Virus record (IMG/VR): IMGVR_UViG_2563366907_000012
From: a virus
Lineage: Duplodnaviria > Heunggongvirae > Uroviricota > Caudoviricetes
Length of the DNA stretch: 14,397 bases
Strand: one strand, 5' to 3'
The notes beneath the pieces were generated by a model that was not told the DNA's origin, ran no database searches, and saw only the letters and a program-made list of their open reading frames with translations. Shown in pieces: positions 11,524-14,397 of this stretch (position 1 is the first letter of the stretch; the number at the start of each line of letters is the position of its first letter). The translations under genes and the position numbers were made by a program.

Positions 11524-14397
11524 ATGAGTAAAGTCTTTATTTGCGCCGCTATTCCTGACGAACTGGCAACAAGGGAAGAAGGCGCTGTGGCTGTAGCCAC
11601 AGCCATTGAAGCTGGCGACGAACGCCGTGCTCGAGCAAAATTTCACTGGCAATTCCTGGAACATTATCCGGCTGCTCAGGACTGCGCTTATAAATTTATT
11701 GTCTGCGAGGATAAACCTGGCATACCCCGCCCTGCCCTCGATTCATGGGATGCTGAATATATGCAGGAAAACCGCTGGGATGAGGAGTCTGCTTCTTTTG
11801 TCCCGGTTGAGACTGAATCCGATCCGATGAACGTCACTTTTGACAAGCTGGCCCCTGAAGTACAGAACGCTGTCATGGTTAAGTTCGACACATGTGAAAA
11901 CATCACCGTTGATATGGTTATTAGCGCACAGGAATTGTTGCAGGAAGACATGGCAACATTCGACGGACATATCGTTGAAGCGTTGATGAAAATGCCAGAA
12001 GTTAACGCCATGTATCCGGAGCTTAAGTTGCACGCCATTGGGTGGGTTAAGCATAAATGTATTCCTGGTGCTAAATGGCCCGAAATTCAGGCAGAGATGC
12101 GCATCTGGAAAAAACGTCGCGAAGGTGAACGCAAGGAAACCGGAAAATACACGTCTGTTGTTGATCTCGCCCGCGCCAGAGCCAATCAACAGTACACTGA
12201 AAATTCAACAGGAAAAATCAGCCCGGTCATTGCTGCCATTCATCGCGAATACAAGCAGACATGGAAAACACTGGATGACGAACTGGCCTACGCTCTCTGG
12301 CCTGGTGATGTGGATGCCGGAAACATTGACGGCAGCATCCATCGCTGGGCAAAAAAAGAAGTTATCGACAACGACCGCGAAGACTGGAAGCGTATCTCGG
12401 CATCAATGCGCAAACAGCCTGATGCCCTTCGCTACGACCGCCAAACTATTTTTGGCCTTGTCCGTGAGCGTCCGATCGACATTCACAAAGATCCCGTAGC
12501 ACTGAACAAATATATCTGCGAATACCTGACGACAAAGGGCGTGTTTGAGAATGAAGAAACAGACCTGGGCACTGTTGATGTTCTCCAGTCATCAGAAACA
12601 CAAACTGATGCAGTGGAAACTGAGGTATCTGATATCCCAAAAAATGAAACCGCGCCGGAAGCTGAACCATCTGTAGAGCGTGAGGGGCCGTTCTATTTCC
12701 TCTTCGCAGATAAGGACGGAGAAAAATACGGTCGCGCAAACAAACTCTCTGGTCTGGATAAGGCACTGGCTGCTGGCGCCACTGAAATCACAAAAGAAGA
12801 ATATTTTGCCCGAAAAAATGGCACATACACGGGCTTACCGCAAAATGTAGATACCGCTGAAGATTCAGAACAACCAGAGCCGATAAAAGTTACCGCTGAC
12901 GAAGTAAACAAAATTATGCAGGCAGCCAATATCAGCCAGCCTGACGCCGATAAGTTGCTTGCTGCATCACGTGGTGAATTTGTTGAAGGGATTAGTGACC
13001 CGAATGATCCGAAATGGGTTAAGGGGCTCCAGACCCGCGATTCTGTGAACCAGAACCAGCATGAATCGGAACGGAACTACCAAAAAGCGGAACAAAACAG
13101 TCCAAATGCGTTACAAAACGAGCCAGAAACGAAACAGCCTGAACCAGTAGCGCAACAGGAAGTGGAAAAAGTCTGCACCGCCTGCGGTCAGACCGGCGGC
13201 GGCAACTGCCCTGATTGTGGCGCGGTGATGGGCGACGCAACATACCAAGAAACATTCGATGAAGAGTATCAGGTTGAAGTTCAGGAAGATGATCCGGAGG
13301 AAATGGAAGGCGCTGAACATCCACACAAGGAGAACACTGGCGGCAATCAGCATCACGATAGCGATAATGAAACTGGCGAGACGGCAGATCACCCAATTAA
13401 GGTGAACGGTCATCACGAAATCACATCCACCAGCAGGACGTGTGACCATCTAATGATCGACCTTGAAACCATGGGAAAAAATCCTGATGCCCCGATCATC
13501 TCAATAGGTGCAATATTTTTCGATCCGCAAACCGGAGATATGGGACCGGAATTTAGTAAGACTATCGATCTGGAAACTGCTGGCGGAGTCATTGATCGGG
13601 ACACCATTAAATGGTGGCTTAAGCAATCACGCGAAGCGCAATCTGCCATTATGACCGATGAAATCCCGTTAGATGATGCACTGTTACAATTGCGAGAATT
13701 TATCGACGAAAACTCCGGTGAATTTTTTGTTCAGGTTTGGGGAAATGGAGCCAACTTCGACAACACGATTTTGCGCCGTTCATACGAACGGCAGGGGATC
13801 CCCTGCCCGTGGCGTTACTACAACGATCGCGATGTACGCACAATCGTTGAGCTGGGGAAAGCCATAGACTTCGATGCCAGAACGGCTATTCCATTCGAAG
13901 GTGAGCGCCATAATGCGCTTGATGACGCCCGTTACTGGGAACTGGAAAAAGATGAAGTGATAAGCCCACTGCCGGTTTATGCCTCAACCTTTGAAGGCTG
14001 GGACTCCCCTGAACGTAGTGCCTTCCCACTGCAACTGTTTGGTTTCCATTACAAATCCCGTACGCACTCGACCTACGGCAACATTGATGTCCTGAAGGCA
14101 GCCTGCCGTCAGGAAGTGTGGATCAACCCTATTGACGCACAGAAACGTGGGATTGCCAACGGCGATATGGTGCGGGTGTTTAACCATCGTGGCGAAGTTC
14201 GGCTACCAGCCAAAGTGACACCACGCATTCTCCCTGGGGTTAGCGCTATGGGCCAGGGAGCCTGGCACGAGGCCAATATGTCTGGCGATAAAATCGACCA
14301 CGGCGGCTGTGTGAATACGCTAACCACTCTGCGCCCTTCACCACTGGCGAAGGGAAACCCGCAGCACACTAATCTGGTCGAGATCGAAAAAATATAA
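11524..14397 (+). CDS. Large chimeric ORF: YdfE/RecE-like prophage protein (zinc ribbon plus DEDDh 3'-5' exonuclease domain) fused in frame to the C-terminus of a DmsA/YnfE/YnfF-family molybdoenzyme
   Basis: ATG at 11524 with GAGGT SD (track start 11488 is TTG). Features in order: [16 protein letters not shown] zinc ribbon (~13174..13221), acidic/His-rich linker, Exo I DLETMG, Exo II GNGANFD, Exo III HNALDDA (~13441..13930). From ~14010 on, [20 protein letters not shown] ... [13 protein letters not shown] ... [20 protein letters not shown] reads as a molybdopterin dinucleotide-binding domain. Stop is at the last base of the window. Confidence 0.7.
   Translation: [957 protein letters not shown]

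Follow-up and report, generated by a model that had tools for sequence, protein, structure and literature searches.

The locus analyzed here occupies the 3' part of a 14,397-nucleotide stretch of viral DNA (IMG/VR record IMGVR_UViG_2563366907_000012; the window). A prophage exonuclease gene follows dicB and ydfD and is joined in frame to a fragment of the host gene ynfE. The following features were assigned in this region:

11055..11431, + strand: dicB (11055-11243) and ydfD (11240-11431), directly upstream of the exonuclease gene (Pfam DicB and DUF1482, in L012)
11524..13935, + strand: codons 1-804 of an 823-codon prophage exonuclease gene (PHROG 2082, WP_000048327.1, PhiR42_1, K-12 ydfE)
11524..12138, + strand: N-terminal domain A, an alpha/beta portion and then helices, residues 1-205
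12256..12558, + strand: helical domain B, residues 245-345 (pLDDT 93-98), where RecE homology starts
12685..12828, + strand: small beta-hairpin/helix domain C, residues 388-435 (pLDDT 91-96 at ~391-430)
12943..13041, + strand: conserved RecE motif, residues 474-506, with 30/33 residues (91%) identical to K-12 RecE 454-486
13174..13218, + strand: four-cysteine knuckle CxxC-x7-CxxC (residues C551, C554, C562 and C565)
13315..13416, + strand: acidic His-rich linker, residues 598-631 (by composition and RecE homology)
13390..13391, no strand: module breakpoint, upstream of which the sequence is common with recE-type genes and downstream of which the DEDDh module follows (blastn)
13447..13935, + strand: predicted DnaQ-like DEDDh 3'-5' exonuclease domain, residues 642-804 (Pfam PF16473, motifs, Foldseek)
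13927..13935, no strand: deletion joint within the microhomology GCCCGT(T)AC, which occurs in both ynfE and the exonuclease gene (three-way alignment of the window with ynfE and the intact exonuclease gene)
13936..14397, + strand: 3' fragment of host ynfE, codons 656-808 and the stop, in frame with the phage gene

The open reading frame begins at ATG 11524, with GAGG nine bases upstream, and continues in one uninterrupted frame on the + strand. The 823-position profile of PHROG 2082 matches residues 1-805 of the product, and 803 of residues 1-804 are identical to WP_000048327.1 of E. coli H15, the sole change being D612N. The protein annotated as "exodeoxyribonuclease VIII" in phage PhiR42_1 shows 99.9% identity, and K-12 ydfE corresponds to residues 1-256. 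These comparisons bear out the original prediction that about 800 phage-encoded residues follow dicB-ydfD in the ydfE position; the exact number is 804. The order dicB-ydfD-exonuclease is likewise annotated in E. coli H15, NT1F10 and K-12, and dicB and ydfD belong to the same early-left operon as the exonuclease gene. Precomputed Pfam matches for the exact window protein comprise YdfE_N (PF27430), YdfE_C (PF27432), Rv2179c-like and Molydop_binding. Thousands of genomes, as well as deposited phage genomes, carry the intact relative as one 823-codon CDS, which rules out the misjoining of several genes by frameshifts, a possibility raised together with the prediction.

The phage-encoded protein has three parts: a folded YdfE-type N-terminal region, a RecE-homologous middle and a DnaQ-like DEDDh exonuclease. 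Three domains of the N-terminal region are confidently predicted (AlphaFold2 pLDDT), none of them with a recognizable fold; the flanks of domain C (residues 346-382 and 439-455) have pLDDT below 50 and are predicted to be disordered. Domain B shows 25% identity to RecE 278-351 (BLASTP and local alignment). In a BLASTP comparison with K-12 RecE, residues 262-627 align to RecE 278-592, and the NCBIfam model of exodeoxyribonuclease VIII aligns residues 246-623 to its positions 271-600 of 877 and then stops. The identity rises to 68% between residues 471-627 and RecE 454-588, a segment containing the 33-residue stretch whose resemblance to RecE had been proposed and is upheld by the alignment.

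The two CxxC pairs expected of the postulated zinc ribbon are present, but their spacing is x7 and not x11. Both the Cys4 motif and the x7 spacing are the same in 16 representative clusters covering each of the three nuclease module types, and in RecE. This knuckle may bind zinc. Residues 546-601, which include the knuckle and the acidic stretch, are 84% identical to RecE 512-567. The acidic His-rich linker is found verbatim as described (7 His, 7 Asp/Glu and 2 Lys in residues 598-631), is 60% identical to the RecE linker 564-588, and forms part of a wider acidic stretch of 76 residues (566-641) with 21 Asp/Glu versus 3 Lys/Arg. The AlphaFold2 model of residues 471-804 has a mean pLDDT of 52.6, with values of 60-90 in the core of the exonuclease domain and without a confident structure for the knuckle. 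At this low confidence the linker is predicted to be disordered, and it is probably flexible; given this poor model, we draw no conclusion on the structure of the knuckle or on the effect of the truncation on folding. The knuckle and the linker are ruled out as novel features, since both are RecE's own.

The C-terminal domain matches the Pfam family PF16473 (Rv2179c-like) with an E-value of 2.9e-62 and 209.9 bits against a cut-off of 27. All five residues of the catalytic set are present: D646 and E648 in Exo I (IDLET), D746 in Exo II (NGANFD), and H796 and D801 in Exo III (HNALDD). These motifs align with those of Salmonella phage epsilon34 gp34 and T4 DexA (D7, E9, D119, H186 and D191; PMC12153337). 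A sequence search of PDB finds T4 DexA (8kel) with an E-value of 1.5e-6. The same structure ranks first (E 6e-8) in a Foldseek search with the low-pLDDT model (52.6), followed by RNase T and the PolC exonuclease, with Cas2-DnaQ and REXO2/Orn also among the matches, all at probability 1.00. Domain searches thus agree with the DEDD-family fold originally proposed. By family membership, the domain is predicted to be a metal-dependent 3'-5' exonuclease. Its substrate is most likely DNA by analogy with T4 DexA, which shares the Pfam family and is a DNA exonuclease (PMC12153337); many copies are named "3'-5' exoribonuclease" by NCBI, after Rv2179c.

The exonuclease domain had been called complete. 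The domain itself and its five catalytic residues stand, but its alignment to the 177-position profile spans positions 2-168, and the window copy lacks the 19 C-terminal residues of the intact protein (QAKYVSVIWQKLIPSQADS), which form most of the final helix following the catalytic Asp. YnfE sequence begins three residues after D801 and leaves the C-terminal helix incomplete in the window copy, whereas intact homologues have the full domain.

Comparison with RecE proteins shows that the domain swap is real: the window protein is RecE-like up to residue ~623 and continues with a DEDDh exonuclease where RecE has PD-(D/E)XK, as had been proposed. A Pfam search of the window protein finds no match to PF12684 (PD-(D/E)XK) or to PF06630 (Exonuc_VIII), which K-12 RecE carries at residues 615-850 and 2-178, respectively, and its score against the NCBIfam RecE equivalog model NF007259 (283.6 bits) is far below the cut-off of 1269. 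The RecE homology ends shortly before the RecE nuclease domain begins. At the DNA level, blastn aligns window positions 11201-13390 to the hybrid recE gene of L007 with 92% identity and, beginning at 12948, positions 12948-13390 to K-12 recE; both alignments stop at the same base. The same scaffold occurs with the other nuclease: 900-residue proteins with PF27430, PF27432 and PF12684 share 97-98% identity with the first ~620 residues, in matches that cover 98% of the query, and these forms diverge from the 823-residue PF16473 forms within the linker. PF06630 is combined with the DEDDh module in other family members (P0128). The combinations seen comprise two N-terminal types with DEDDh, short PD-(D/E)XK, long PD-(D/E)XK or no recognizable nuclease domain.

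The prediction had described this architecture as unusual, which does not hold. The DEDDh module is found in 4055 of 5426 complete E. coli genomes (75%), often in cryptic prophages, and one cluster at 90% identity has 23,183 members; in E. coli this gene thus most often has the DEDDh architecture, which is very common and ordinary. The fusion is also already catalogued, as "exonuclease" or "3'-5' exoribonuclease" in RefSeq, as PHROGs family 2082, and as YdfE_N + YdfE_C + Rv2179c-like in Pfam. A search of the accessible literature found no experimental or functional paper on ydfE, this protein or the fusion architecture. The two forms have different neighbors: recT and lar come after the PD-(D/E)XK hybrid, whereas xis and int directly follow the DEDDh forms in intact loci. 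Among the handful of loci examined, recT was never adjacent to the DEDDh form and occurred only after PD-(D/E)XK forms.

The phage sequence ends at 13935 and not, as had been given, at 13950. Megablast alignments with the phage gene extend to 13935-13941, and the one with ynfE starts at 13927. YnfE is a selenate/tellurate reductase catalytic subunit. The downstream fragment corresponds to positions 649-805 of 805 in its NCBIfam profile and scores 326 bits against a cut-off of 1675, below that of a full-length YnfE. Of YnfE it retains only the Molydop_binding domain (Pfam, residues 836-949), the Fe4S4 and molybdopterin domains being missing. At the DNA level it shares 99.6% identity with the Nissle 1917 ynfE, and ynfF and ynfG come next in the source contig. 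The intact order elsewhere is exo-xis-int-rspB-rspA-ynfA-ynfB-speG-ynfC-ynfD-ynfE. What had been regarded as the host junction is an internal deletion joint: a prophage attachment site is ruled out at this position, as xis, int and seven host genes separate the two sequences in intact loci and the joint lies in a 9-nt microhomology. A microhomology-mediated deletion of ~9 kb removed the last 19 exonuclease codons, xis, int, the attachment site, the seven host genes rspB-ynfD and 655 ynfE codons, and the prophage can no longer excise. The truncation of this copy and its fusion to ynfE had escaped the original prediction.

Taken jointly, the scaffold, the module exchange and the deletion are best explained by a modular gene of lambdoid prophages that in K-12 is represented by the ydfE pseudogene and that the window carries in its full-length form except for a truncated 3' end; we hold this explanation with high confidence. 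The 957-residue exonuclease'-'ynfE chimera is most probably a by-product without function. That it is instead a selected, functional new protein appears highly improbable, even though the reading frame continues past the joint as far as the native stop of ynfE, no catalytic residue has been lost and the YnfE portion comprises an entire Molydop_binding domain. The exact fusion protein is known from one NCBI assembly contig, seen in two samples; the joint is present in none of the 5426 complete E. coli genomes, and an exact 37-mer scan for it in species-representative genomes gave no match. Moreover, one deletion in three is in frame by chance, this one destroys ynfE and removes xis and int, and another deletion affects this arm in a closely related strain, so that the region looks deletion-prone rather than selected. 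As a separate observation, the foreign sequence in the chimera, which keeps all five catalytic residues, could by chance continue the last helix.

Three roles can be considered for the intact DEDDh form. As an accessory factor in phage recombination or replication, this 3'-5' exonuclease would trim 3' tails or flaps together with host RecBCD/RecA in a phage without annealase or Gam, by comparison with the DnaQ-like gene in the Sak4-SSB-Abc2 Rec module of epsilon34. This role is possible, though we do not favor it. DnaQ-like nucleases have been reported in lambdoid Rec modules (Zheng et al. 2025; PMC12315714), the stand-alone epsilon34 gp34 lies between SSB and Abc2, the scaffold is in common with the recombination enzyme RecE, and the window contains neither an annealase nor a Gam gene and has an excess of Chi sites (6 observed versus 0.46 expected). 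However, the same study excludes int-adjacent DnaQ genes from Rec modules and states that 3'-5' exonucleases usually inhibit recombination, and no partner gene adjoins the exonuclease gene. An RNA substrate, as for Rv2179c and RNase T, for example in the trimming or degradation of transcripts or small RNAs during induction, is improbable. The naming of the Pfam family after the exoribonuclease Rv2179c, the NCBI label of copies and the close structural neighborhood of RNase T and oligoribonucleases speak for it; on the other hand, the nearest solved relative by both sequence and fold is the DNA exonuclease T4 DexA, the scaffold is derived from a DNA enzyme, and DEDDh enzymes often use both nucleic acids, so that sequence alone cannot decide.

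We also consider it unlikely that the DEDDh form is a prophage nuclease for defense or superinfection exclusion, which, like the E. coli DexA homologue EcD ("HREX"), would attack the modified (5hmC) DNA of infecting T-even phages while leaving host DNA intact. EcD provides a precedent, as it is reported to cleave the DNA of T4 and to confer protection on E. coli (Kang et al. 2025; PMC12153337). The membership in the Pfam family of DexA, with DexA as the best PDB match, the persistence of the gene, frequently within cryptic prophages, in 75% of the complete E. coli genomes, and the lack of a RecT partner would fit such a function. Nevertheless, EcD is a different, stand-alone protein, whose cloning primers encode MIDTET... 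and ...TIPETYD. The gene of those primers is probably synthetic, because a 23-mer scan of viral contigs based on them gave no match. In the alignment, the residue opposite DexA W152, for which stacking on 5hmC has been reported, is a Tyr of the window protein (in PWRYYNDRD); at the position of DexA D169 an Asp lies within one residue, in a loop four residues shorter, and the alignment is ambiguous. PADLOC gives only a weak match, to a CRISPR-associated DEDDh. Finally, the gene stands at the end of a repressor-controlled early-left operon and should be silent in a lysogen, which is unexpected for a defense gene.

For the modular lambdoid-prophage gene, the following scheme can be proposed. After derepression of the prophage, the exonuclease gene would be transcribed last in the dicF-dicB-ydfD early-left operon. 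The enzyme would remove nucleotides from free 3'-OH ends by two-metal catalysis involving D646, E648, D746 and D801, with H796 as the general base, while the RecE-type scaffold would tether or target it, with no dedicated annealing protein. RecE-type and DEDDh forms arise by module exchange at the fixed breakpoint in the linker, the RecE-type module traveling with recT and the DEDDh module alone, abutting xis-int. More tentatively, and with considerable doubt, we suggest that the RecE/YdfE scaffold (the N-terminal domains, the motif, the Cys4 knuckle and the acidic linker) may be a targeting module indifferent to the nuclease it carries, which lambdoid phages pair with nucleases acting in either direction or leave without a nuclease. 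In that case the scaffold would have a function independent of RecT and 5'-3' resection, and the DEDDh form would be a RecT-independent 3'-end degrader with its own role in phage exclusion or in the control of host recombination.

The gene is among the most abundant E. coli prophage genes, and RecE is widely used in recombineering. The natural exchange of domains between this gene and recE, in loci with and without recT, provides a handle on the unexplained N-terminal two-thirds of RecE, and natural chimeras, whose differences are confined to the part beyond residue ~623, can serve directly as reagents to find the ligand of the scaffold. For annotation, the long open reading frame is to be treated as a deletion-generated pseudogene chimera exonuclease'-'ynfE and not as a new protein, in a strain that has lost ynfE together with seven neighboring host genes and whose prophage is fixed in its position.

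Comparison with known systems places the window copy closest to the intact 823-residue prophage exonuclease WP_000048327.1, which is the same gene with the same neighbors dicB and ydfD; the window copy differs by lacking the last 19 residues, by its fusion to YnfE 656-808 and by the absence of xis and int downstream. K-12 ydfE of the Qin prophage occupies the same place after dicB and ydfD and is 100% identical over residues 1-256, but is cut by IS2 after codon 256, with the RecE-like middle and the nuclease gone, whereas the window keeps 804 codons. T4 DexA (PDB 8KEL), the best solved relative, and the stand-alone EcD share the Pfam family PF16473 and the DEDDh catalytic set with the window domain, at an identity to DexA that varies between 22-30% with the method of alignment. 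Both DexA and EcD consist of a single domain, DexA with extra loops, whereas the window domain is the C-terminal module of an 823-residue protein. The stand-alone DnaQ-like gp34 of epsilon34 is 55.6% identical over the whole domain, including the C-terminal helix QAKYVS.IW.KL, and exonucleases of this type have the early-left operon location in common with the window gene. However, gp34 has 182 residues and belongs to a Sak4-like/SSB/Abc2 recombination module, whereas the window domain is fused to a RecE-type scaffold with no recombination module present. With K-12 Rac RecE, homology extends over residues 262-627 of the window protein, at 91% identity in the motif, 84% in the knuckle and acidic stretch and 60% in the linker. 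Downstream of the window-type gene, in contrast to Rac recE, there is no recT, ralR or lar. The two proteins also differ at both ends: the first ~245 residues are of the YdfE_N type in the window protein and of the PF06630 Exonuc_VIII type in K-12 RecE, and the C-terminus carries a predicted DEDDh (3'-5') nuclease in the former and the PD-(D/E)XK nuclease PF12684 (5'-3') in the latter.

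The large ORF of the window is an uninterrupted single frame that opens at 11488 and closes with the stop codon 14395-14397. Its likely start is ATG 11524, which has GAGG nine bases upstream and gives a product of 957 residues. Two genes lie directly upstream of the frame, with the DicF small RNA ahead of dicB, an arrangement also found in Qin of K-12:

10829-10880, + strand, DicF small RNA (Rfam RF00039, 76.7 bits)
11055-11243, + strand, dicB
11240-11431, + strand, ydfD

By profile search the product falls into two parts. Residues 1-804/805 match positions 1-805 of 823 of the PHROG 2082 "exonuclease" profile, and residues ~801-957 correspond to the C-terminal end of YnfE, a selenate reductase subunit (Pfam Molydop_binding; positions 649-805 of the 805-position YnfE profile).

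In a Megablast search of 5426 complete E. coli genomes, region 11400-13941 was matched at up to 99.9% identity, with one place covering at least 80% of this query in 3464 genomes. The intact gene in the matching genomes is one 823-codon CDS annotated "exonuclease" (e.g. WP_000048327.1); across residues 1-804 the window shows a single substitution relative to this protein (D612N). In the deposited genome of phage PhiR42_1 the gene is 99.9% identical and labelled "exodeoxyribonuclease VIII". The K-12 ydfE pseudogene, cut by IS2, is identical (100%) to its first 256 codons, and the original prediction had correctly placed the gene where Qin-type prophages carry ydfE. Judged by these sequence matches, the phage part of the large ORF is a known gene, slightly truncated. 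Since a single 823-codon CDS is present in many genomes, the scenario raised earlier of several genes misjoined by frameshifts is excluded. RefSeq, PHROGs and Pfam already have names for this exonuclease architecture, and the gene ranks among the commonest of E. coli prophages. The 545-bp module encoding its DnaQ-like (DEDDh) exonuclease domain occurs in 4055 of the 5426 complete genomes, at up to 7 places per genome, and stand-alone homologues of ~180 residues number in the hundreds among phage genomes, with matches in 748 phage records.

The order of genes in intact loci is dicB-ydfD-exo-xis-int-rspB-rspA-ynfA-ynfB-speG-ynfC-ynfD-ynfE. The window's exonuclease gene runs into ynfE codon 656 at 13935/13936, and the joint sits within the microhomology GCCCGT(T)AC (13927-13935). 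Arithmetic on the locus coordinates indicates that ~9 kb is absent relative to intact loci, the lost segment taking in the last 19 exonuclease codons (QAKYVSVIWQKLIPSQADS), the xis and int genes, the attachment site, seven host genes and the greater part of ynfE. An interpretation of the junction as the prophage end was rejected because intact loci carry xis, int and the seven host genes in between. By comparison with these loci the junction is a deletion, which has left the window copy a truncated pseudogene joined to ynfE. The joint is absent from all 5426 complete E. coli genomes searched, and an exact-match scan of species-representative genomes gave no hit; an identical fusion protein comes from a single NCBI assembly contig (GCA_000351205.1), in which ynfF and ynfG come next. 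A separate deletion was found in the closely related E. coli strain ECAMP047 (locus L004 from NZ_CP196265.1, 11742-12423), which has the same prophage at 99.6% identity over the window; there, ydfD abuts a shortened rspB, the exonuclease gene having been lost along with xis and int. The int-proximal prophage arm therefore appears to be deletion-prone, and the in-frame exonuclease-YnfE chimera is best regarded as accidental.

The predicted DEDD-family exonuclease domain was recovered by domain search as Pfam PF16473 (Rv2179c-like, E 2.9e-62, residues 642-804), with catalytic residues D646/E648, D746 and H796/D801. The domain is clear but, contrary to the original prediction, incomplete in the window, where YnfE-derived sequence begins three residues past D801. 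Its nearest solved relative is T4 DexA (sequence E 1.5e-6), which Foldseek, using a query model of low overall confidence, also ranks first (E 6e-8), ahead of RNase T and then the exonuclease domain of PolC.

The middle of the protein is homologous to that of RecE. Residues 262-627 align with RecE 278-592 by BLASTP, and the match to the NCBIfam exodeoxyribonuclease VIII profile covers residues 246-623 (positions 271-600 of 877) and goes no further. The stretch suspected to be RecE-like (474-506) is indeed 91% identical to K-12 RecE 454-486. The proposed zinc ribbon has its four cysteines in two CxxC pairs (C551, C554, C562, C565), but the motif is CxxC-x7-CxxC and not CxxC-N11-CxxC; 16 representative clusters have the motif with this x7 spacing. 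The acidic His-rich linker is present at residues 598-631 (7 His, 7 acidic, 2 basic), within a 76-residue stretch with 21 acidic versus 3 basic residues. The knuckle and acidic stretch (546-601) share 84% identity with RecE 512-567 and the linker shares 60% with RecE, so both are ordinary RecE features and not the unusual ones they had been taken for.

Searching with residues 1-640 revealed two architectures with a common front part. The first (812-826 residues, with 23,183 members in one of its clusters) combines YdfE_N, YdfE_C and the Rv2179c-like domain, and the second (900 residues) combines YdfE_N, YdfE_C and DUF3799, the RecE PD-(D/E)XK domain, with 97-98% identity over 98% of the query. 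The two are collinear through a 10-residue stretch and divergent thereafter, having residues 1-623 in common. At the DNA level, window 11201-13390 is 92% identical to the hybrid recE gene encoding the DUF3799 form and similarity to K-12 recE spans 12948-13390, both ending at the same base. These two architectures with a common breakpoint support the suggestion that a DnaQ-like domain replaces the RecE nuclease. When 1.84 billion representative proteins were scanned with HMMER, just 248 clusters proved related to the part outside the nuclease. By our own classification of these, the N-terminus is either YdfE_N or of the K-12 RecE type (PF06630), and the two combine freely with C-terminal regions of four kinds (DEDDh, short PD-(D/E)XK, a long PD-(D/E)XK variant, and no recognisable nuclease domain). 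The C-terminal region of the fourth group has no Pfam match. Seven representative homologues (P0126, P0129, P0136, P0137, P0154, P0169 and P0184; 700-790 residues) have YdfE_N and the middle regions, and their C-terminal ~300 residues have no Pfam match and resemble neither nuclease module. Zheng et al. 2025 (PMC12315714) mention nuclease-less "RecE-2" proteins, to which the group without a recognisable nuclease domain probably, and the seven homologues possibly, correspond.

In the handful of loci compared, the PD-(D/E)XK hybrid gene is followed by recT and lar, as in Rac, whereas DEDDh forms with either N-terminus have excisionase and integrase directly downstream. An 805-residue protein of GCA_039763085.1 (locus L011, 5001-7418) has a K-12 RecE-type N-terminus (PF06630) and the DEDDh module, which is thus joined to both scaffold types; its gene has a Rac-like context (sieB, kilR, ydaE), with an excisionase-like gene and integrase downstream and without recT. 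By these contrasting neighbourhoods, the units exchanged are the PD-(D/E)XK domain with recT and following genes on one side and the DEDDh domain alone on the other. Errors of detail aside, the original prediction was largely right. The domain swap is genuine and recurs, and natural swaps with and without recT offer a possible route to the function of the RecE-type scaffold.

Beyond the domain family, catalytic residues, module boundary and gene context shown here, we propose that the enzyme would be expressed as the last gene of a repressor-controlled dicF-dicB-ydfD operon, and would carry out two-metal 3'-5' hydrolysis starting at free 3' ends, acting without a dedicated annealase. DNA is the probable substrate, given that T4 DexA (PMC12153337) is the closest relative to have been characterised; the Pfam and NCBI names point to an RNase, which is a further candidate. 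No experimental paper on the gene was found in the searchable literature. A candidate role as an accessory of recombination or replication in a phage without a Rec module is in keeping with the lack of annealase and Gam genes in the window and with its six Chi sites versus 0.46 expected from shuffles, a count reached in 0 of 200 shuffles (14.4 kb):

1323-1330, 1375-1382, 1781-1788, 3259-3266, 8436-8443 and 13427-13434, Chi sites (GCTGGTGG), the last at the start of the DEDDh module

Zheng et al. 2025 (PMC12315714) describe a class of lambdoid phages that are rich in Chi and have no Rec module, and this prophage, in which annealase and Gam are absent, is consistent with that class. The gene could also be an anti-phage nuclease akin to DexA and its E. 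coli homologue EcD (HAK9828821.1; PMC12153337), but EcD is a different, stand-alone protein, Tyr stands here in place of the reported 5hmC-stacking Trp, and PADLOC returned no defence-system match apart from a weak CRISPR-associated DEDDh match.

Elsewhere, the prophage carries a hok/sok-type toxin-antitoxin locus and an immunity repressor:

2455-2779, - strand, hok/sok-type locus: sok RNA at 2608-2779 (Rfam, 106.7 bits) adjoining a 51-codon ORF at 2455-2610, annotated hokD in related genomes
8908-9681, + strand, LexA/S24-peptidase type cI repressor (Pfam HTH_3 and Peptidase_S24 on the source contig)

Among known phages, epsilon34 has a stand-alone homologue of the exonuclease module, gp34 (55.6% identical), located between SSB and Abc2. 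The K-12 Qin prophage has a DicA-type repressor, unlike the cI of the window, whereas the downstream genes ydfA through ydfD are common to both.
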